Made by a program: the position numbers and the translations under genes. This document shows positions 2,370 through 29,924 of a DNA stretch of 34,862 nucleotides, piece after piece (position 1 is the first letter of the stretch; each line of letters opens with the position of its first letter). The notes beneath the pieces were generated by a model, which was given only the letters and a program-made list of their open reading frames with translations, was not told where the DNA came from and made no database searches. This DNA comes from Christensenellales bacterium. GTDB taxonomy: Bacteria; Bacillota; Clostridia; Christensenellales; Aristaeellaceae. The stretch is from NCBI GenBank assembly GCA_050945995.1, contig JBMNUA010000001.1, positions 1 to 34,862 on the forward strand, read 5' to 3'.

Positions 2370-3569
2370 ATGGGAAAATGCTTGATCATCGGCTGCGGGG
2401 GCGTTGCGACCGTCGCGGCGCATAAGTGCTGCCAGAACAGCGCGGTATTTGATGAGATCATGATTGCGAGCCGCACGAAATCCAAGTGCGACGCGCTCAA
2501 GGCGAAACTCGACGGCGGGAAAACGCTGGTGCACACCGCGCAGGTGGACGCGGACAACGTGGGGGAGCTGGTCGCGCTCATCGAGCGGTTCAAGCCCGAT
2601 GTGGTGCTCAACCTCGCGCTGCCGTATCAGGATTTGAGCGTAATGGAAGCCTGCCTTGCCACGAAGACGCACTATATCGACACCGCGAACTACGAGCCGC
2701 CGGACACCGCGAAATTCGAGTACGGCTGGCAATGGGCGTACCGCGAGCGCTTCGAGCAGGCGGGCATCTGCGCGCTGCTCGGCAGCGGCTTCGACCCGGG
2801 CGTGACGGGCGTGTTCTCCGCCTACGCCCTCAAGCACCACTTTGACGAGATTCACGAAATCGATATCCTCGACGCGAACGGGGGCGACCACGGCTATCCC
2901 TTCGCAACGAACTTCAACCCCGAGATCAACATCCGCGAGGTGACGGCGAACGGCAGGTACTGGCAAAACGGGGAATGGGTGGAGACCGCGCCCATGGAGA
3001 TCAAGCGCGCGTATGACTTTGATCAGATCGGCGAGCGGGACATGTACCTTCTCTATCATGAGGAATTGGAGAGCTTGGCGAAACACATCAAGGGCATCCG
3101 GCGCATCCGCTTTTTCATGACATTCGGGCAGAGCTATCTGACGCATTTGAAGTGTCTGGAGAACGTGGGCATGACGTCGATCGAGCCGATAGAGTTTCAG
3201 GGAAAGCAGATCGTGCCGCTTCAGTTTTTGAAGGCGGTGCTGCCCGACCCGGCGAGCCTCGGGCCGCGCACCGTGGGCAAGACGAACATCGGCTGCATCT
3301 TCCGCGGCGTGAAGGACGGGAAGGAAAAGACGTATTACCTCTACAATGTGTGCGATCATCAGGCGTGCTACCGCGAGGTCGGCTCGCAGGCGATTTCGTA
3401 TACGACGGGCGTGCCCGCGATGATCGGCGCGATGCTCGTGATGAACGGCAAATGGAACAAGCCCGGCGTTTGGAACGTGGAGCAGTTTGACCCCGATCCG
3501 TTCATGGACGCATTGAATCAATGGGGACTTCCGTGGATTGAGGACTTCAATCCCGTGTTGGTGGACTGA
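2370..3569 (+). CDS. Saccharopine dehydrogenase-family carboxy(nor)spermidine dehydrogenase/synthase (CASDH/CANSDH-like)
   Basis: 399 aa. It has an N-terminal Rossmann motif (IIGCGGVA) and the length and overall look of CANSDH. It sits immediately upstream of nspC. An AGGAGGG ribosome-binding site is present. Confidence 0.8.
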   Translation: MGKCLIIGCGGVATVAAHKCCQNSAVFDEIMIASRTKSKCDALKAKLDGGKTLVHTAQVDADNVGELVALIERFKPDVVLNLALPYQDLSVMEACLATKTHYIDTANYEPPDTAKFEYGWQWAYRERFEQAGICALLGSGFDPGVTGVFSAYALKHHFDEIHEIDILDANGGDHGYPFATNFNPEINIREVTANGRYWQNGEWVETAPMEIKRAYDFDQIGERDMYLLYHEELESLAKHIKGIRRIRFFMTFGQSYLTHLKCLENVGMTSIEPIEFQGKQIVPLQFLKAVLPDPASLGPRTVGKTNIGCIFRGVKDGKEKTYYLYNVCDHQACYREVGSQAISYTTGVPAMIGAMLVMNGKWNKPGVWNVEQFDPDPFMDALNQWGLPWIEDFNPVLVD

Positions 3570-4708
3570 TGGAGCGGCTGATACAGGAGGTTTCCCGCGT
3601 TTCGACGCCCGCCTTCGTGGTGGATGAGGGGCGGATCGCGCACAACCTTGCGATACTCAAGCGCGTGGCGGAGGAAGCCGGCTGCAAGATACTGCTGGCG
3701 CAGAAGGCGTTTTCGATGTTCGCGCTCTATCCGCTGATCGCACTATCGCTTGCGGGCACGACGGCGAGCGGGCTGTATGAAGCGCGGCTCGGGCGCGAGG
3801 AGATGGGGGGAGAGTCGCACATCTTCTCCCCCGCGTACACGGACGCGGAGTTTGACGAGGTGCTCGCAATCTGCGATCACATCGTATTCAACTCGTTTGC
3901 GCAATGGGCGCAGTTTCGGGAGCGGGCGCGCGCGTCCGGGCGGAGCTTCGGCATCCGCATCAACCCCATGCACTCCACGCAGGCGCATGCGATTTATGAC
4001 CCCTGCGCGCCGCACTCGCATCTGGGCGTGACGCGCGAGCACTTTCGGGAGGATTTGCTCGACGGCATCGAGGGGCTGCACTTTCATACGCTGTGCGAGC
4101 AGGGCGCGGACGCGCTGATCGAGACGCTCGCGGCGGTCGAGCGGCAGTTTGGCGCGTTCCTCCCGCGGATGAAGTGGGTGAACTTCGGTGGCGGGCACCA
4201 CATCACGCGCCCGGGCTATGACGTTGACGCGCTGATCGAATGCGTGCGCGGGTTTCGGGCGCGCTATGGTGTGGAGGCATACCTCGAGCCGGGCGAGGCG
4301 GTGGCGCTCAACGCGGGATTTCTGGTGGCGCGCGTGATCGACATCGTCGAAAACGGCATGGAGATCGCCATCCTCGACACTTCCGCCACCTGCCATATGC
4401 CGGATGTGATCGAGATGCCGTACCGTCCGCCGCTGTTTGGCGCGGCGGCAGCGGGGGAGCGGGCGCATACCTACCGGCTCGCAGGTCCGACCTGCTTGGC
4501 GGGGGATGTGATCGGCGATTATTCGTTCGACCGCCCGCTTGCGCCGGGCGACAAGCTGGTATTTGAGGATATGGCGATCTATACGATGGTAAAAACGAAC
4601 ACCTTCAATGGAATGCGCCTGCCGTCGATCTACCTGCGCGGCGCGGATGGGGGATTGCGACTCGTGCGCGCGTTCGGGTACGAGGATTTCAAAAACAGGC
4701 TTTCGTGA
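3569..4708 (+). CDS. nspC: Carboxy(nor)spermidine decarboxylase (alanine racemase-fold PLP decarboxylase)
   Basis: 379 aa. It is N-terminally similar to NspC (TPAFV.DE..I..N). The start overlaps the upstream stop (TGATG), indicating translational coupling. Confidence 0.85.
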   Translation: MERLIQEVSRVSTPAFVVDEGRIAHNLAILKRVAEEAGCKILLAQKAFSMFALYPLIALSLAGTTASGLYEARLGREEMGGESHIFSPAYTDAEFDEVLAICDHIVFNSFAQWAQFRERARASGRSFGIRINPMHSTQAHAIYDPCAPHSHLGVTREHFREDLLDGIEGLHFHTLCEQGADALIETLAAVERQFGAFLPRMKWVNFGGGHHITRPGYDVDALIECVRGFRARYGVEAYLEPGEAVALNAGFLVARVIDIVENGMEIAILDTSATCHMPDVIEMPYRPPLFGAAAAGERAHTYRLAGPTCLAGDVIGDYSFDRPLAPGDKLVFEDMAIYTMVKTNTFNGMRLPSIYLRGADGGLRLVRAFGYEDFKNRLS

Positions 4709-4749
4709 ACGGTGCGCCCCGCGCGGATTGCGCGGGGCGCGTAGTTTCC
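4613..4749 (+). repeat. Direct repeat copy 1: the last 31 codons of nspC, its stop codon and its terminator hairpin
   Basis: It matches 5881-6018 with about six substitutions and a 1-nt indel, by direct visual alignment. Confidence 0.9.
4714..4749 (+). terminator. Intrinsic terminator of the polyamine operon
   Basis: Perfect 11-bp GC stem GCGCCCCGCGC-GGATT-GCGCGGGGCGC. The following T tract is weak (GTAGTTTCC). Confidence 0.65.
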
Positions 4750-4761
4750 ATAGAGAGAGGG

Positions 4762-5736
4762 TTACTTTTCGCAAAAGCGGACATAACTAGTAAATGATAT
4801 ATTGATGCCTAATTCTCTTGCGAGATCTGCGATTAAGCTGTCATCATCATTTGTGCTCCAACCGCCGCTCACGATGCTATTTATTTTATGATAGCCGGCG
4901 AGTATCGTTTCTTCATATAAATCATCAAAAATATCTGGGCGTTTAGATTTTAACACCTCTTGGCAATTTACTGGCAGGGCAGCTAATGTCTCCTTCGTTA
5001 CAAACCCTGTTGAAGTAATGAGTATGCCGCCCGGTTTTAATACCCGATACGTTTCTTTTAATGCATTTCCGATGTTACCTTCCGCATTCCCGATCCCGCC
5101 GCCATCTGACACGACATCGATGCTATTATCGGTAAAAGGAATATCGCAGAAATCAAAGACGGCATAGTGGATATTGGGAGAGTTTATTTTTCGATCTAAA
5201 AGATGTTTCCATTCGCGCACGACGGTTGGTGAAAGGTCGTTGATGATAATTGCTGCATCTGGGTTGGCATGTAAGATATACGGCATAAAACCGCCACCGG
5301 GACCGGCGCCAACTTCGAGGATCAGTCCACCCCGCTCCGCAATCTGTCTACCAATGCAACTTCTAACTGGATTTGCATGGTGGATACTGGCATCCCAATT
5401 TCGAGCGATCCTTTTTTCCGATACGATACTATTTGTCCATTCGGCGTTTTCCTTGTGCTCGTGTTCTGGTAGGAAATAGGCGATTTCATCCATTTTGTAT
5501 TGGCTATTCACTATTTTTTCGAAGAAGTTATTTCCCACCAGTAAATCATTGATAGACACATGAAACAAATCGGATAATTGGAGCAATGATTCAAGCTCCG
5601 GTAATGCTGTGCCGCATTCCCATTTCGACACCGCCTGTGAAGTCACCCCGAGTTTCTCCGCTAATGCATCTTGTGTTACATTCAAGCTCTTGCGAAATGA
5701 GGTGATTCGCTTCCCGAAATGGACTTTGTTTATCAT
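4762..5736 (-). CDS. XRE-family helix-turn-helix domain fused to a class I SAM-dependent methyltransferase domain
   Basis: 324 aa from the ATG at 5736 (MINKVHFGKR...), which is preceded by GGAGGAACTGGT. The longer ORF start at 5805 lacks a ribosome-binding site. The N-terminus (LNVTQDALAEKLGVTSQAVSKWECG) is an HTH_3/XRE motif. The centre (LILEVGAGPGGG, IIINDLSP, LKPGGILI) matches methyltransferase motifs I, II and post-II. The gene is visibly AT-rich compared with its flanks. Confidence 0.8.
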   Translation of the reverse strand: MINKVHFGKRITSFRKSLNVTQDALAEKLGVTSQAVSKWECGTALPELESLLQLSDLFHVSINDLLVGNNFFEKIVNSQYKMDEIAYFLPEHEHKENAEWTNSIVSEKRIARNWDASIHHANPVRSCIGRQIAERGGLILEVGAGPGGGFMPYILHANPDAAIIINDLSPTVVREWKHLLDRKINSPNIHYAVFDFCDIPFTDNSIDVVSDGGGIGNAEGNIGNALKETYRVLKPGGILITSTGFVTKETLAALPVNCQEVLKSKRPDIFDDLYEETILAGYHKINSIVSGGWSTNDDDSLIADLARELGINISFTSYVRFCEK

Positions 5737-5880
5737 ACCAGTTCCTCCATCTTGAGATTTCAGCATAATTATATAGCAAAAAAAGATAGTATGGAAGCGA
5801 TGCACAATATAGTTTGCGCAGATGAATTCTACTATGGGTTGGGTCGTAAAGACCTTAATGAAATATAACTTTGATAACGG

Positions 5881-6018
5881 ATGCGCCTGCCGTCGATCTA
5901 CCTGCGCGGCGCGGATGGGGGATTGCGGCTCGTGCGCTCGTTCGGGTACGAGGATTTCAAAAACAGGCTTTCATGATCGGCGCGCCCCGCGCGGATTGCG
6001 CGGGGCGCGTGGTTTTCC
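5881..6018 (+). repeat. Direct repeat copy 2: an orphan relic of the nspC 3' end (still reads MRLPSIYLRGADGGLRLVRSFGYEDFKNRLS*) plus a second copy of the terminator hairpin (5982-6008)
   Basis: It aligns with 4613-4749. It has no upstream nspC body, so it is a gene-end fragment or pseudogene. Confidence 0.9.
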
Positions 6019-8776: not shown

Positions 8777-8968
8777 TTTTACTTGGATTGCACGACAACA
8801 GCTAAATTATCTACTCGACCTAGCGTGTGTCTCTGCGTTTAAGTAAAATGTCGATTGAATCCATCCTAACCGCGCAAGCGGCTTAGCGGTCGAAATGAAC
8901 ATTCGCAAGATTGTGTGAACAGAGCATATATCAAGCTTCTGGGCAAACCGTCATTTGGAGGAGCGAAT

Positions 8969-9490
8969 ATGAGTACACGGATAAAACTTGCCGAAACGGC
9001 GAAGGAAAAAGCACGATTACCTTTCCATGGTTTTATAGAAGGAAAAGAGTCAAATATTCAACCGATAGTCAGCCTCTTTCCGAAATGGAACATACAAAGC
9101 GCCGATAGAATGTGGTGTGCTGGATTTGTTTATTATTGCTGTATTGAAGCAGGTTTTAAGATACCATACAGTCCGAAAGGCTGTGTATCGTGCAGTCTTG
9201 CCGGATGCGGTGGTTGGGAAGAATTTGCGCTGAAAGATAGTAGAATTGAATATCATCCACGAAGTGATCATGATTTTACCCCTGCGGCTGGTGACATTGT
9301 TCTTTACGACCATGTCTTTATAAATCGCGAACATGACCATATCGGAATCGTACTGGAAGATAAAACTGATTCTATTATTGTAGCAGAAGGAAACACATAT
9401 AATGATAATATTTCACGAATTCTTGAGCGTAAGAAGAATGAACATATCCGGGCGTATATCCGCATACCAAATGGTTACTCCCAGGACTAA
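8969..9490 (+). CDS. CHAP-domain (cysteine/histidine-dependent amidohydrolase/peptidase) protein with no signal peptide
   Basis: 173 aa from the ATG at 8969, which is preceded by GGAGGAGCGAAT. The candidate catalytic Cys lies in MWCAGFVYYC, the His in HDHIGIVLE, and AEGN follows. The N-terminus is hydrophilic. The gene is AT-rich. Confidence 0.75.
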   Translation: MSTRIKLAETAKEKARLPFHGFIEGKESNIQPIVSLFPKWNIQSADRMWCAGFVYYCCIEAGFKIPYSPKGCVSCSLAGCGGWEEFALKDSRIEYHPRSDHDFTPAAGDIVLYDHVFINREHDHIGIVLEDKTDSIIVAEGNTYNDNISRILERKKNEHIRAYIRIPNGYSQD

Positions 9491-9597
9491 GATATGATTT
9501 ATTAAAACATCAATCTGACGGTCTCATTTTATGTGGAGTGTAAAGTGTTGAGGTGGACAGCTGAATCACAAGTATTCTGTAAAAGGAGATCACCGAA

Positions 9598-10437
9598 ATG
9601 ATGATTGAGAGATACTACGGCATATCACCTGACATCGTGCAGCAGTTGATCGCCGCAACTAAGAACAAAGTAAATGATAGAAGCGGAGACAACCGATTCA
9701 AATCAACAAAGGTATTTTTATTTGACGAGTATGCTGTGCTAAGCATGCAGAACATGGATGTGCGAAATGTCGAGGTAAAGGATGTGGATTACAAGCATCT
9801 CGGGCGGTTATGCGAAACACTACTCGATTTACATACACAAGGAGTTCACGTTTTGCCCATACGCGCATTCCAAAGTGAGAACGGAAGCGGCTACATGGTG
9901 CAGCAACGGGCGAAAGGCGCGGAATTATATGAAAGAGACAAGTTGCTCGACAAACATTATATCTTAGGGCACGTCGCGCTTTTATCAAACGCGCCGCAAG
10001 CGTACTATGATAAGTTTGTCGCCGATGCCATAGCGATTATGGAAAAAGGCGTGCTTATCGACTTTGTGGGAAAAGACAATTTCTTTTATCACGAAGAGAT
10101 CGGCTTTCAGTTCATTGACCTTTATGCACACAACGATTATGTATACGGATTAACCGACATTAAACCGAATATCAAACAATTGGCGGCGCGCAACTGTTTC
10201 ATACCATGCTATTTTGATGCTGTGCCGACGCATCGCGACACGGTATCGAACGTGCTGTCCGAGCTTACGGAATGCGAGTGGAAATTATTGAAACAGCAGA
10301 ACGCGACCATATTTACTAAGTGCAAAACAGCATTGATCAAAAACGGCGTAGCGGAAAAAATGATCGATAAAATCATTTCGGATGATGGATTTATCCCACA
10401 GAAACATCAATTGGGATTGGATCGGAATCATTCATAA
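9598..10437 (+). CDS. Hypothetical protein with weak protein-kinase-like/phosphotransferase-like motifs
   Basis: 279 aa. An AAGGAG ribosome-binding site lies 9 nt upstream. The gene is AT-rich. GYMVQQRAKGAEL is hinge-like, LIDFVGKDNFFY is catalytic-loop-like and FQFIDLY is DFG-like, but no clear Gly-rich loop is present. Function is unassigned. Confidence 0.6.
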   Translation: MMIERYYGISPDIVQQLIAATKNKVNDRSGDNRFKSTKVFLFDEYAVLSMQNMDVRNVEVKDVDYKHLGRLCETLLDLHTQGVHVLPIRAFQSENGSGYMVQQRAKGAELYERDKLLDKHYILGHVALLSNAPQAYYDKFVADAIAIMEKGVLIDFVGKDNFFYHEEIGFQFIDLYAHNDYVYGLTDIKPNIKQLAARNCFIPCYFDAVPTHRDTVSNVLSELTECEWKLLKQQNATIFTKCKTALIKNGVAEKMIDKIISDDGFIPQKHQLGLDRNHS

Positions 10438-10582
10438 AAGGATGCACTTCCTCAATTAAAACCGTAGATCCGCCGACGATCCGGTAGCAGTTCATGATCA
10501 TGTTTCACCCTCATGTCCGCCACGACCCGATCCAAAGCCTGCTCCCGCTCCAATGACGCCAAATCATCATCCGTCCCTGCCA

Positions 10583-10624
10583 TAAAACAAACGCGCCGTC
10601 AATCGATTGCATCAATTGACGGCG
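10583..10624 (-). terminator. Intrinsic terminator of ssrA
   Basis: On the minus strand, the hairpin CGCCGTCAATTGATGCAATCGATTGACGGCG (10-bp stem) is followed by CGTTTGTTTTAT. It starts 8 nt after the tmRNA CCA end. Confidence 0.7.
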
Positions 10625-10631
10625 TGTGATC

Positions 10632-10981
10632 TGGTGGAGGTGCGGGGAGTTGAACCCCGGTCCGAAAGCCAGACGGCAAGAGCTTCTCCGAGCGCATTCC
10701 ATTATTTTACATTCCCTCTGCCGCACCGCAATGGACAGCGTTACGGGTTCAGTAGCTTCATAAAATCCCACCCGCCGCAAAGCTTACGCGGGCTGGTTCC
10801 CTGCTTTTGCAGCGCCGATTGCCTACGCCGCAGGAGGCTTAGGGTCGACGTTCGCGGACTAAGCCGCGAAAGCTACGTTTTCGTAGTTGTCAGTTCAATT
10901 ATTGTTCCCGTTGTCAGGCGGTACAGGGCCGCCGCTCGCTACTCCAGCAATCCGAACCCCCGTCGAAACCAGTACACCCCC
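10632..10981 (-). ncRNA. ssrA: tmRNA (SsrA)
   Basis: The reverse complement starts GGGGGTGTACTGGTTTCGACGGGG and ends GGACCGGGGTTCAACTCCCCGCACCTCCACCA. The acceptor GGGGGTG/CACCTCC includes the G3:U pair. The internal tag frame reads ...GAC AAC TAC GAA AAC GTA GCT TTC GCG GCT TAG (DNYENVAFAA*). It lies directly downstream of smpB. Confidence 0.95.
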
Positions 10982-10996
10982 ATGTGTGCGGCGGGG

Positions 10997-11458
10997 TTAC
11001 CCCCTGCCCGCGAAGGCGCGCTCGATGTCGCGGTCCGTGTCGCGCTTTGCCATGTCGTCGCGCTTGTCGTAGAGCTTCTTTCCCTTGCAGAGCGCGATTT
11101 CCATCTTCATCCTACCATCTTTCAGGTACACGCTCAGCGGGATGATCGAAAACCCCTTCTGCATCACATCCGCCTGCAACCTGCGTATCTCATGCTTGTG
11201 CATGAGAAGCCTTTTGGGTCTGAGCGGATCGGTGTTCGCGTAACTGCCCTTCTCGTAGGGGCTGATGTGCATGTTCTGCACATATAGCTCGCCGCCGCGC
11301 ACGGCGACGAAGCTGTCGGCGAGGTTGCACTTGCCAAGGCGTATGGATTTGACCTCCGTGCCCTTCAACTCAACGCCCGCCTCCCAGGTCTCCAATACGA
11401 AGTAGTCGTGCCGCGCGCGGCGATTCCGGGCGACGACCTTGACGCCAGTCTGCCGCAT
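10997..11458 (-). CDS. smpB: SsrA-binding protein SmpB
   Basis: 153 aa from the ATG at 11458 (GGAGGG 6 nt upstream). Motifs include NRRARHDY, ETWEAG.EL.GTEVKS, PRKLL.HK.EI and the conserved C-terminal tail. Confidence 0.93.
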   Translation of the reverse strand: MRQTGVKVVARNRRARHDYFVLETWEAGVELKGTEVKSIRLGKCNLADSFVAVRGGELYVQNMHISPYEKGSYANTDPLRPKRLLMHKHEIRRLQADVMQKGFSIIPLSVYLKDGRMKMEIALCKGKKLYDKRDDMAKRDTDRDIERAFAGRG

Positions 11459-25952: not shown

Positions 25953-27224
25953 ATGAACAGGCGTTTTACGGGAAAGACCGGTATCTTCCTCGCCGTCTCA
26001 GGCGTGATCATACTCGTCGCGCTCGTGATGCAGATCCTTGGCTTTGGCATCAACTTGGGCATCGATTTCACCGGCGGCTCGCTGCTCACCTATTCTGTGG
26101 GCGAGAGTTTCGACGTGGCGGATGTGAACCAAATTCTCGATCAGGCGGGCTATTCCAACTACCTCGTCACAAAGACCGAGCCGGCGGACGCGTCCGCGCA
26201 GGACGGCGAGGGCGACGGTCTGACCGACCTTCAGGTGCGGCTCTCGCTGGTCGATGAGACCGAGGGGCTCGAGGACGCGGTCGTCGGCGCGGTGACGGAA
26301 GCTGTCGATGGCGCGAGCCTCGTCAGCTACGGCGCGCTCTCGAACGCGCGCATCAACCGCGAGAAATACGATTCGGCGTTCTCCGGCGGCTACATCGCGG
26401 AATTCGACGTGAACGCGCCGTTTGACGAAGCGGAACTGGGCGATCGCGTTTCCGCGGCGCTTACGAACGCGGGCTTCTCCGTCAAGGCGGTCGAAGCCGT
26501 CCTGGCGGATGCAGACGAAGATGCCGCCGATACGGGTGCACCCTTGCGGCTTCTGATATCCGTTGAAAACCAAACGGGCAAGGTGCGCGAGATGATCGAG
26601 CGCGAGATGTCCGCGAAGTATCCGAACTTCGCGTTCGTCGCCATCGACCATGTCAGCGCGATCGCGGGGCGCGATTTGATCGCCAACGCCGTCAAAGCGC
26701 TGCTCATTGCGTTTGCCTGCATGCTCGTCTACATCGCGATACGGTTTGACTTCTACTCCGGCGTCGTCGCGATGGCTGCGCTCATCCATGATGCGCTCAT
26801 CATGTGCGCGTTCATGGTGTTCTTCCGCAATGTGTTCCAGGCGAACTCCGCGTTCATCGCCGCGCTGTTGACCATCATCGGCTATTCGATCAACAATACC
26901 ATCATCATCTTCGACCGCGTGCGCGAGGTTTCCAAAAAGCCCGGCTACACGCAAGCGCCGAAGATCGATGTGGTCGAATACTCCGTCGGCGTGACGCTCA
27001 GCCGCACGCTCAACACCTCGATCACCACGCTCATCGCGCTCGTATTCCTTTTCATCTTCGGCGTTGACTCCATCCGCGAGTTCATGTTCCCGCTGATCGT
27101 GGGCATGCTCTCTGGCGTGTACGCGTCCGTCTTCCTCAATTCCCAGGTCTGGGCGATGTGGATGGATAGGCGAAGCGCCAACAAACAGGAAAAGGCGGCC
27201 GCGCAAAAGGGAGCAAAGGCGTAG
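25953..27224 (+). CDS. secF: Protein translocase subunit SecF with an enlarged periplasmic domain
   Basis: 423 aa. Motifs include G(I/L)DF.GG near the N-terminus and a C-terminal block with YSINNTI(I/V).FDR(V/I)RE. An AAGGAGGA ribosome-binding site is present. Confidence 0.88.
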   Translation: MNRRFTGKTGIFLAVSGVIILVALVMQILGFGINLGIDFTGGSLLTYSVGESFDVADVNQILDQAGYSNYLVTKTEPADASAQDGEGDGLTDLQVRLSLVDETEGLEDAVVGAVTEAVDGASLVSYGALSNARINREKYDSAFSGGYIAEFDVNAPFDEAELGDRVSAALTNAGFSVKAVEAVLADADEDAADTGAPLRLLISVENQTGKVREMIEREMSAKYPNFAFVAIDHVSAIAGRDLIANAVKALLIAFACMLVYIAIRFDFYSGVVAMAALIHDALIMCAFMVFFRNVFQANSAFIAALLTIIGYSINNTIIIFDRVREVSKKPGYTQAPKIDVVEYSVGVTLSRTLNTSITTLIALVFLFIFGVDSIREFMFPLIVGMLSGVYASVFLNSQVWAMWMDRRSANKQEKAAAQKGAKA

Positions 27225-27241
27225 TAAAATGGTGTGAACAT

Positions 27242-27283
27242 GAATTAGGAATCAAACCGCTTGCGCGGCGAGGTTCCTAATTC
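27242..27283 (+). terminator. Possible terminator or attenuating hairpin after secF
   Basis: GAATTAGGAA...TTCCTAATTC forms a 10-bp stem enclosing a smaller CCGC/GCGG stem. The following T tract is poor (GCATTTA). Confidence 0.35.
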
Positions 27284-27338
27284 GCATTTATGGAACGTGC
27301 TGCGTTTCACTCGACCACGGCGTCACGGAAGAAATCCA

Positions 27339-27431
27339 CGGCGCGCATTACTCAAGCCGAACGCCTCAATGCTCCACCCGCCCGCGCTGCTCCCGGGCAT
27401 CGCGCAGGCTGCGGCGTGACCCGATGCAAAC
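27339..27431 (+). repeat. Degenerate relic copy of an internal segment of the recJ N-terminal coding region
   Basis: 27339-27416 aligns with 27716-27793 (..CTCAAGCCGAACGCCTC.ATGCT.CACCCGCCCGCGCTGCTC.CGGGCATCGCGCAGGCTGCGGCG). It is followed by CCCGATGCAAAC, which resembles the 3' end of the tandem unit. Confidence 0.8.
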
Positions 27432-27667
27432 ACGGAGGAAACCCATGCGGATTTTAAGCGGCGCAGGCTTTGAACTCCCCGCAGGCATGCCCGATACAAC
27501 CACGGAGGAAACCCATGCGAATTTTTAAGCAGCGAGAAGCGCGCGGCACAGACTTTGAACGTCCCACGGGCATGCCCGACGCAACCACGGAGGAAACCCA
27601 TGCGAATCTTTAAACAGCGCACGGCGCGCGGCACAGACTTTGAACGCCCAGCAGGCATGCCCGATGC
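27432..27667 (+). repeat. Three tandem units of the recJ ribosome-binding site, ATG and first ~20 codons. Unit A is 27432-27501, unit B is 27502-27586, and unit C (the authentic start) begins at 27587.
   Basis: Each unit begins ACGGAGGAAACCCATGCG(A/G)AT and ends GCATGCCCGA(T/C)(A/G)C. The ATGs are at 27445, 27515 and 27600. Confidence 0.9.
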
Positions 27668-29924
27668 GCTGCATCGGCTGCTCGTCGCGCGCGGCATCGG
27701 CTCGGTCGAGCAGGCGCGCGCGTTCCTCAAGCCGAACGCCTCGATGCTTCACCCGCCCGCGCTGCTCACGGGCATCGCGCAGGCTGCGGCGCGGCTGCGG
27801 CAGGCGGTCGGGGCGGGGGAGCGCATCTGCATATTCGGCGATTACGATGTGGACGGCGTGAGCGCCTCGGCAATCCTATCGCTCGCGCTCGGTGAAATGG
27901 GCGGCGAGTTCGAGGTATACCTCCCCTCGCGCCATGAGGAGGGCTATGGGCTGAACGAGCCCGCGGTGCGCGAGATCGCCGCGCGCTGCGCGCTTCTCGT
28001 CACGGTCGATTGCGGCATCACTTCCGCGCATCTCGTATCGCTCGCGAAGGATTTGGGACTCGATGTGATCGTGACAGACCACCACCGCCCGGACGCGATT
28101 TTGCCCGATTGCATCGTCGTCAATCCGCTCGTCGGCGATTACCCCGAACCGCAGCTCTGCGGCGCGGGCGTCGCCTTCAAACTCGCGGAGGAACTGCTCG
28201 GGCGCGACGCCGCGATGGCGTACATCGACCTCGCCGCGCTCGCGACCGTCGCGGACATTGTGCCGCTCACGGGCGAGAACCGCGCGATCGTGTCGCTCGG
28301 ATTGGACGCCATGAACAAGCATCCACGGCTCGGGCTCTCCATGCTGCGCGAGGTCGCCGCACTTTCTGAGAAGCCGTACACCGCGGGCATGCTCGGCTTC
28401 CAGATCGGACCGCGATTGAACGCTTCCGGCAGGATCGGCTCGGCGAAGCGCGCGTTCTCTCTTTTGACCACCAACTCGCCGGATGAAGCGCGCGCCCTCG
28501 CGTCCGAATTGAACGAGGAAAACACCGCGCGCAAAAAACTGGAGTCCGAAATCCTCGAGGATGCGCTTGCCCGGCTCACCGATCACGATTTCGTCGCCCG
28601 CCGCGCCATCGTGCTCGCGGGGGAGGACTGGAACAGCGGCGTGATTGGGCTCGCGGCATCGCGGCTCGCCGAGCGGTTCTACTGCCCCGCGATATTGATT
28701 TCACTTTCTGGCGATACGGGCGTCGGCTCGTGCCGCAGCATTCCGGGCGTGGACATCCACGCCGCGCTGTCCGCCGTACAGTCGCACCTCGTTCGATTCG
28801 GCGGGCATAAGCAGGCGGCGGGGCTTACGATTGCGCGCGAAAACATTGATGCGTTTCAAACCGCGCTCGATCAATATTTATCTGAAACCGTGGCCCCCGA
28901 ACAGTACCTCCCCGTCACCGAATACGACATGGACGCGCGCTTTGACGAGCTCGACCCGGTGTTTCTCTCCCTCATGGAATCCTTCGCGCCCACCGGCATG
29001 GGCAACCCCGCGCCGATCCTGCGCACGCGCGCGCAGGTGGTCGATGCGCGCCGGGTGGGGAAGGACGGCGCGCACCTGAGCCTTTCGCTCAACGACGGCA
29101 CGAACCGGCTGCGCGCCATCGCCTTTCGCGAGGGCGCGCGCGCCAGCCGCCTGTCGGGCGATGTCGATGTCCTCCACGCGCCCAAAATCAACCGCTTCGC
29201 AGGGCGCACGAGCGTCGAGCTGGAGGTTAGGGCGATCAAACCCGCCGGCGGCGCGGAATATTTGGCGCATGCCGCCCCGAACGATGCACTTTTTGCAGCA
29301 TTCTTAACAGAGATGCTCTATAATAGAACATATTCGGGCAAATCCGGCGCGCTCATCTCCCAAGACGAACTGTGCCGTATGCTCGCGGATCACCCGCAAG
29401 GCACGCTCATCATCGCCGCGGACGCGAATTGCGCATCCGAATTCTCGGATTTGGACGCCTTCCTCGGCGAATACCCCGACGACCCGCGCGCCTTTAACGC
29501 CGTTTGCCTCATGCCGGCGGGCGAAATCCCGCCCAATTATCGGCAGGTGATCTACGCGGGGATGCCCGCGCCCGACGGCTTCCGCGCGCTCGACTGCCCG
29601 CCCGCCGCGTGGCTCTCCGAGCTGCCCGGCATAGACGAGCTCCGGCGCGCCTACCTCGCCATGAAGCGGCTGCTCTCGCGCCCGCTCGTACGCCATTCGC
29701 TCCCGACTTTGGCGAAATCACTCACCGACGAATGCGCGCTCGGCATATGTTGCGCCATAGCGTGCACGCTCGCGCTCATCGATATGGAGCTGGTCGTGCA
29801 AACGGGCGATCAACGGCTCGCGCTCGGCAAGTTTCGGAAAGTAAACCCCATGGACGCCCCGGTGTTCCGCGCCATCACCGCGCTGAAAACAAAAGGCGGC
29901 ATGGAGGAATCAACGGATATCTAA
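27600..29924 (+). CDS. recJ: Single-stranded-DNA-specific exonuclease RecJ
   Basis: 774 aa from the ATG at 27600. Motifs include L.ARGI......FL.P, I.I.GDYDVDG.(S/T), the DHH motif (VTDHH) and the GGH.QAAG DHHA1 motif. Confidence 0.9.
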   Translation: MRIFKQRTARGTDFERPAGMPDALHRLLVARGIGSVEQARAFLKPNASMLHPPALLTGIAQAAARLRQAVGAGERICIFGDYDVDGVSASAILSLALGEMGGEFEVYLPSRHEEGYGLNEPAVREIAARCALLVTVDCGITSAHLVSLAKDLGLDVIVTDHHRPDAILPDCIVVNPLVGDYPEPQLCGAGVAFKLAEELLGRDAAMAYIDLAALATVADIVPLTGENRAIVSLGLDAMNKHPRLGLSMLREVAALSEKPYTAGMLGFQIGPRLNASGRIGSAKRAFSLLTTNSPDEARALASELNEENTARKKLESEILEDALARLTDHDFVARRAIVLAGEDWNSGVIGLAASRLAERFYCPAILISLSGDTGVGSCRSIPGVDIHAALSAVQSHLVRFGGHKQAAGLTIARENIDAFQTALDQYLSETVAPEQYLPVTEYDMDARFDELDPVFLSLMESFAPTGMGNPAPILRTRAQVVDARRVGKDGAHLSLSLNDGTNRLRAIAFREGARASRLSGDVDVLHAPKINRFAGRTSVELEVRAIKPAGGAEYLAHAAPNDALFAAFLTEMLYNRTYSGKSGALISQDELCRMLADHPQGTLIIAADANCASEFSDLDAFLGEYPDDPRAFNAVCLMPAGEIPPNYRQVIYAGMPAPDGFRALDCPPAAWLSELPGIDELRRAYLAMKRLLSRPLVRHSLPTLAKSLTDECALGICCAIACTLALIDMELVVQTGDQRLALGKFRKVNPMDAPVFRAITALKTKGGMEESTDI

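Follow-up and report, generated by a model that had tools for sequence, protein, structure and literature searches.

Tandem copies of the translation-initiation region upstream of recJ in a Christensenellales bacterium

The recJ locus and its upstream repeats

The window, the whole stretch of 34,862 nt of Christensenellales DNA analysed here, encodes an intact RecJ in the gene order secD-secF-recJ-relA, and the surroundings are chromosomal housekeeping genes. All three Pfam domains of the protein score over their cut-offs (PF01368, PF02272 and PF17768), identifying it as carrying the RecJ exonuclease domains, and over its full length (100%) it shares 65% identity with relatives that have these domains too. 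The RecJ proteins of relatives begin M-R/L-I/V-Y/F at the homologous point, indicating that the ATG at 27600 is the true recJ start. An earlier note on this DNA held that of three similar ATGs, at 27445, 27515 and 27600, the third alone enters the RecJ body. This is correct; the 774-aa DHH/DHHA1/RecJ_OB protein is read from 27600 alone. Among the 16 window ORFs scanned with Pfam, none encoded a reverse transcriptase, integrase or transposase.

The features of the secF-recJ spacer and of the recJ 5' end are listed in Table 1. The spacer opens with a stem-loop that is nearly identical in four related contigs (L001 at ~3934-3975, L025 at ~1187-1228, L026 at ~1384-1425 and L027 at ~1425-1466). More distant Christensenellales-like MAGs carry it as GGAATTCGGAATC..GGTTCCGAATTCC followed by a T-run, with a compensatory change from A-T to C-G. 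Among the relatives at 65% amino acid identity, the stem-loop is better conserved than the adjoining coding DNA. It is probably the secF terminator and is a conserved landmark of the ancestral secF-recJ spacer.

Table 1. Features between secF and recJ, in window coordinates
Feature	Position	Strand	Description
Stem-loop	27242..27283	+	Inverted repeat just 3' of the secF stop, GAATTAGGAATC...GTTCCTAATTC (also written GAATTAGGAATCRAACCG...CGGCGAGRTTCCTAATTC)
Unit 0	27324..27340	+	Degenerate SD/start CACGGAAGAAATCCACG; GGAGG changed to GGAAG, ATG to ACG; fused to the fragment copy
Fragment copy	27341..27416	+	recJ codons ~39-64; 93% identical to 27716-27791; frame differs from the unit 0 pseudo-start
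Unit A	27420..27489	+	70 nt; CCCGATGC-AAA, SD, ATG at 27445, codons 1-23 minus an in-frame 15 nt
Putative decoy ORF A	27445..27528	+	27 aa, MRILSGAGFELPAGMPDTTTEETHANF; crosses the SD/ATG of unit B; TAA ends at nt 14 of ORF B
Unit B	27490..27574	+	85 nt; full-length copy, SD through codon 23
Putative decoy ORF B	27515..27613	+	32 aa, MRIFKQREARGTDFERPTGMPDATTEETHANL; crosses the recJ SD/ATG; TAA ends at nt 14 of recJ
Unit C	27575..27659	+	Live translation-initiation region and recJ codons 1-20
recJ	27600..29924	+	Intact, 774 aa; Pfam DHH, DHHA1, RecJ_OB; N-terminus colinear with relatives

The repeats are defined by the 18-mer ACGGAGGAAACCCATGCG, comprising the Shine-Dalgarno (SD) sequence GGAGG, a 6-nt spacer and ATG. 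Its only exact matches in the whole window are those at 27432, 27502 and 27587, and the number expected from 100 shuffles is zero. The copies are spaced by 70 nt and then by 85 nt, and TRF reports an array of period 85 with 2.4 copies (27458-27664, score 296) that is by far the strongest in the window. Units A, B and C align over 70 or 85 nt, and the sole gap is the 15 nt in unit A. The mean column identity of the three-unit alignment is 86%, with pairwise values of 85.7% for A and B, 87.1% for A and C, and 85.9% for B and C (90.0% over the columns that B and C share with A). A 19-nt block spanning SD and ATG is invariant across the three units; by our own rough estimate, the chance of this at such divergence would be ~3% if the block had been specified beforehand. 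The head-to-tail order, the constant period and the similarity above chance identify the array as a tandem segmental duplication. The description in the earlier note of three tandem SD/start units, with these ATGs, lengths of 70 and 85 nt and a 15-nt indel, was found in full in the sequence. The third unit, put there at ~81 bp, is present as well, but is simply the 5' end of the live gene.

From 5' to 3' the locus reads hairpin, unit 0, the copy of codons ~39-64, TGA-CCCGATGC-AAA, unit A, unit B, and unit C leading into recJ. Unit 0 is a fourth match to CACGGAGGAAACCCATG, with 3 mismatches, for which 0.01 matches are expected per window; in a local-alignment test its support is marginal (19-84 of 1000 shuffles). 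It is placed 41-57 nt past the stem-loop, roughly where relatives carry their single SD/ATG. The similarity of the fragment copy to the gene body is well above chance (local alignment score 127, versus 20.8 +/- 2.4 in shuffles). A fifth, decayed unit 5' of unit 0, at 27284-27323, was considered and rejected, its alignment being no better than that of shuffles.

The junctions between units all read CCCGAYRC-AAM-CACGG, and the single-copy progenitor is not reconstructable without a close relative. With no such relative from which to rebuild the progenitor, no clear microhomology was identified at its boundaries from the junctions. Slippage at a GGAGG microhomology, between codons 21-22 and the SD, was rejected since the junction sequence does not fit. 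The repeat is also not a MITE, a REP or another dispersed element, as the unit motifs are confined to this locus in the 34.9-kb window and gave 0 matches in two metagenome scans.

Two other regions of the window depart from their surroundings. A 135-nt direct repeat (96% identical; 4613-4747 and 5881-6015) consists of the last ~32 codons and the terminator hairpin of an Orn/DAP/Arg-decarboxylase-like gene (3569-4708). The copies enclose a 1.1-kb insert (4748-5880) with a GC content of ~46% versus ~60%, which holds a minus-strand HTH_3 and SAM-methyltransferase ORF (4762-5805); no integrase for this insert was seen among the ORFs scanned. From its sequence, the region 4613-6015 resembles an inserted cassette at which the end of a gene has been duplicated. 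A second low-GC patch (42-50%) lies at 9001-11000, with a CHAP-domain ORF at 8915-9490 and ORFs at 9598-10437 and 10607-11287 that have no Pfam match. This patch may be a small acquired island.

Assembly support and distribution among relatives

An array of short repeats on a single contig raises the question of whether a metagenome assembler threaded strain variants through a short cycle, so that one or two true units became three and the copies only seem to have diverged. We consider this unlikely. The longest exact repeat in 27225-27900 is just 26 nt, which leaves no repeat ambiguity for an assembler with k >= 27. The unit junctions (CCCGATGCAAACACGG, CCCGATACAACCACGG and CCCGACGCAACCACGG) are all different, and each of the three would need to exist in the reads. 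A 15-nt deletion and a decayed unit 0 are also unlike the output of bubble threading. Moreover, a Logan contig of 1,869 nt (L024, SRR31066156_182020) is 100% identical to the window from secF to 27398. This independent assembly reproduces unit 0 and most of the fragment, both products of rearrangement, base for base. Some observations do favour an artefact: the differences between units look allelic, in that they are synonymous, the array as a whole is known from the one 34.9-kb contig, and L024, the only other assembly, ends before units A-C. The copy number of units A-C therefore rests on one contig. L024 may end where it does because coverage was low or because the population varies at the repeat. 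Its break falls 4 nt inside a 23-nt block common to the fragment and the gene body.

Sequences from the same species are scarce. Among 5.8 billion protein clusters this RecJ stands as a singleton, the next best being 64-66% identical. Exact look-ups of the 774-aa and 789-aa versions of the protein found no same-species RecJ, searches with the N-terminal and full-length protein found no fragments closer than 66%, and two scans of metagenome DNA gave 0 matches to the locus. With SecF as the query, one short Logan contig (L024) was the only sequence of the same locus recovered.

More distant relatives are available, and they lack the array. When 475 nt upstream of recJ were aligned against the first 325 nt of the gene, upstream copies of the recJ 5' end were found in 0 of 26 related secF-recJ loci (z <= 2.3, versus 44 in the window). 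The four nearest relatives (L001, L025, L026 and L027, at 65% amino acid identity) have the hairpin, a spacer of 41-305 nt and one SD/ATG, with no repeats. The comparison of related spacers that the earlier note suggested thus turned up no upstream copy or comparable leader in any of the 26 loci, and the arrangement is private to this lineage. One of the nearest relatives, L025, has a longer secF-recJ spacer (330 nt at 1172-1500, versus 90-130 nt in neighbours) that is unlike its own recJ 5' end. Decayed recJ fragments within this spacer were looked for and rejected (score 21, versus 20.2 +/- 2.6 in shuffles).

Divergence between the copies

The differences between the copies are not spread evenly over codon positions. 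Units B and C differ at 12 of 69 coding nucleotides, with 2, 1 and 9 of these at the first, second and third codon positions, affecting 7 codons synonymously and 2 non-synonymously; the 12 nucleotides thus amount to 2 amino acid changes between ORF B and RecJ residues 1-23. The corresponding counts are 2, 2 and 5 between units A and C (3 synonymous and 5 non-synonymous codons) and 2, 0 and 5 between the fragment and the gene body. A null was simulated in which a neutral copy diverges from a copy under purifying selection. Under this null, at least 9 of 12 differences at third positions have a probability of 0.009-0.018, or of 0.0015-0.004 when combined with the fragment, the counts being small. 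Simple neutral decay in place thus accounts poorly for the differences. A model in which both copies are subject to coding constraint typically gives the value observed. The earlier note had described the copies as aged duplications rather than assembly stutter. They are indeed too diverged for simple stutter, but their ageing by neutral decay agrees poorly with 9 of 12 differences at third positions.

Constraint acting through translation is not a full explanation either, as the fragment is equally biased yet out of frame with any start. When polarised by unit A and relatives, roughly half of the differences between B and C map to the lineage of the live gene as synonymous changes, and B has few changes. 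Judging from these patterns, the synonymous bias may point to exchange between alleles that had diverged, or to constraint. The simplest reading would be that the units diverged inside functional alleles and were joined or refreshed by inter-strain recombination, or that an imported allele took the place of the live copy.

In two places units B and C differ by a multi-nucleotide block instead of a single substitution, AGAA/CACG (27535-27538 versus 27620-27623) and CACG/AGCA (27565-27568 versus 27650-27653), and they contain both amino acid differences between ORF B and RecJ. Such blocks suggest template-switch or paired-indel events.

The divergence values also bear on the relative age of the remnants. 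The earlier note recognised an upstream relic, and a copy of recJ codons ~39-64 is present at 93% identity, but its description as older is contradicted by the units, which are only 86-90% identical. Divergence gives no ground for regarding the less diverged fragment as older. By this measure, the fragment would be younger than the splits among units A, B and C, or at least not older.

Copies that were born diverged and coding-like would account for the synonymous bias, and they are what repeated integration of a mobile element at the recJ 5' end would leave behind, if the element supplied a replacement 5' end (duplicating its att site) and has since been lost. The same contig does contain a duplicated gene 3' end (135 nt, 96%) flanking a low-GC insert. 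Nevertheless, such an origin is highly improbable for the recJ array. The units abut exactly, with no element DNA between them, exact loss of the element would be needed three times, and the 85-nt head-to-tail period is the signature of tandem duplication. The att-scar reading was set aside for lack of element genes, as an integrase or transposase was not found in any window ORF scanned.

The fragment and the gene body form a ~76-nt direct repeat pair, one member of which is intragenic, with substitutions only, and in this they resemble the template and variable repeats of diversity-generating retroelements (DGRs). A DGR was rejected since the mismatches are not confined to adenine (A>G, A>C, A>G, C>T and C>A from fragment to gene body, and mixed between B and C), the repeat is at the 5' end of a housekeeping gene, and there is no reverse transcriptase in the 16 ORFs scanned.

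Decoy ORFs and the origin of the array

The three ATGs fall in separate frames: 27445 in frame 1, 27515 in frame 2 and 27600 in frame 0. The spacings of 70 and 85 nt are both 1 mod 3, and the upstream copies are therefore out of frame with recJ and yield short ORFs, here termed decoys. The earlier note described two such ORFs, 27445-27528 and 27515-27613, each with a TAA 14 nt into the next ORF, and the analysis confirms both together with their peptides. The SD, its spacing and the start codon of decoys A and B are those of recJ. Each is an upstream ORF (uORF) with its own SD and start and a stop near the next start, as in the regulatory class of uORFs. Every upstream copy reads CAT GCG AAT YTT TAA and ends 14 nt into the next unit, the TTTAA motif supplying each stop.

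The overlap is real and resembles known coupled arrangements, as the earlier note had pointed out, but it is the arithmetic outcome of unit length. It follows from units of 1 mod 3 and from the TAA that recJ codons 4-5 (TTT AAA/AAG) contain in the +2 frame. As read from the sequence, the 14-nt geometry is an automatic by-product of the duplication and no evidence of design.

All three starts lie 3' of the ancestral start position, and the recJ promoter should therefore transcribe them. Decoys A and B lie in what would be the recJ leader and are probably translated; the sequence alone gives no reason for ribosomes to favour the real start over either decoy. If the decoys are translated, termination-reinitiation or occlusion is a reasonable prediction of their behaviour. 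In S. meliloti, uORF9 overlaps its main ORF by 13 nt and is translationally coupled to it, and close upstream ribosome-binding sites lead to occlusion (PMC13285730). The decoys are like this uORF, the iraD leader ORF (PMC5574718) and synthetic bicistronic designs (PMC5995908) in having a strong SD and ATG of their own, and in that the short ORF spans the next SD and has its stop no more than ~14 nt from the following start. They differ in being copies of the N-terminus of the main gene, two in series, found in no relative and known from sequence alone.

It is conceivable, if unlikely, that ORFs A and B are kept by selection to set RecJ synthesis, either through serial termination-reinitiation, in which each ORF would open up the next start and hand ribosomes on to it like a natural bicistronic-design leader in series, or by throttling recJ through occlusion of its ribosome-binding site. 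In favour of this, all three units share one SD, spacing and ATG as well as the invariant 19-nt block, and folding of the initiation regions is no stronger than in shuffles. The differences of unit B from C are nearly all synonymous, the gap in unit A preserves the frame, and the 14-nt overlap is like the 13-nt overlap of the coupling uORF of S. meliloti (PMC13285730). Under this reading, selection would have left its mark in the near-purely synonymous divergence of unit B and in the constancy of the SD-ATG block. We see a slim chance that the decoys act as a selected, translated two-step relay, made from copies of the RecJ N-terminus, that would set or buffer RecJ by termination-reinitiation. 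Several findings speak against maintenance by selection. The arrangement is missing from 26 of 26 related loci, including the four nearest, and the peptide of unit A is not conserved, with 5 non-synonymous versus 3 synonymous codons. The third-position bias is equal in the out-of-frame fragment, where constraint through translation is no explanation, and the counts are tiny (12 and 5-7 differences). The geometry is set by unit length, and stalling motifs, alternative hairpins and terminators are all lacking.

Searches for regulatory signatures were likewise negative. The leader has no match to an Rfam family (best E = 0.73), no promoter-like sites and no terminator on the + strand were found in 26900-27800, and the predicted fold of the 476-nt leader is no more stable than that of shuffles (z = +0.52). 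Within 35 nt on either side of each start, the RNA tends, if anything, towards less structure than in shuffles (z = +0.5 to +1.3; +1.28 for ORF A). No stalling motif, regulatory codons or alternative hairpins were found in the leader. An attenuator or riboswitch-like leader was rejected on the lack of a terminator and of an Rfam match and on the fold score. A short leader ORF is common to this locus and to leader-peptide attenuation of the trp, erm and bmrCD types, but the alternative hairpins, terminator and stalling codons of those systems are lacking here. A regulatory role for the cascade described in the earlier note finds no support, given its absence from all 26 related loci, the lack of Rfam, terminator and promoter matches, and the unremarkable leader fold. 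The statement in the same note that no recJ leader of this kind is known to have been described agrees with our literature search, which found neither a published recJ leader nor a tandemly duplicated initiation region.

There is no sign of the arrangement being maintained as a regulator. Its upstream members look decayed: unit A has more non-synonymous than synonymous codon changes, and a deletion, and unit 0 has lost both SD and ATG. In the explanation that we favour, and consider fairly likely, the recJ initiation region underwent serial tandem duplication in this lineage alone; the copies were tolerated, and the decoys are probably translated and probably have a modest, unselected effect on RecJ. 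A segment of ~85 nt, from just 5' of the SD to codon 23 (boundary CCCGATGC followed by AAC-CACGGAGG), would have been duplicated head-to-tail at least twice. A further rearrangement would have set codons ~39-64 behind the most upstream SD/start. Later deletions would have removed 15 nt from unit A and the interior of unit 0, and point mutations would have killed only the first copy, unit 0. The locus would thus require at least two or three duplications and two deletions in ~330 nt. Each segment has its own SD and ATG, such that the last copy always regenerates an intact gene and the duplication is tolerated; internal duplications, by contrast, would frameshift recJ. A ribosome that completes ORF B would reach its stop 14 nt beyond the recJ ATG, and may re-initiate or briefly occlude the start. 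The net effect of the decoys on RecJ output, as predicted from sequence, is probably modest.

Serial duplication of this kind has known counterparts. Short tandem segmental duplications arise by slippage or unequal exchange, independently of RecA, and are limited by ExoI, ExoX and RecJ. The recJ array is like them in its 70-85-nt head-to-tail units, constant unit boundary, later indels and point divergence, and gene fragments beside an intact gene. It differs from them in that the copied segment holds a complete initiation region, making each copy a potential start, in the occurrence of at least four rearrangements within ~330 nt, and in a substitution pattern unlike plain neutral decay. ExoI, ExoX and RecJ are reported to stabilise tandem repeats, in a passage of PMC3942315 that cites Feschenko et al. 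2003. The link that the earlier note drew between RecJ and the repeats at its own gene is thus real biology as far as that passage goes, but nothing ties the activity to the enzyme's own locus, and there is no other sizeable array in the window.

The locus is a partial tandem duplication that makes overlapping uORFs, probably incidental ones. It carries a warning for gene callers, as three identical starts occur in 160 nt and homology alone identifies the right one. If the decoys were selected and translated, they would form an unusually transparent uORF relay, born by copying the start of the regulated gene itself. If instead the array is a scar, it would indicate that duplications of a gene's 5' end that carry their own ribosome-binding site and start are tolerated and instantly yield overlapping upstream ORFs, the raw material for leader-peptide regulation.
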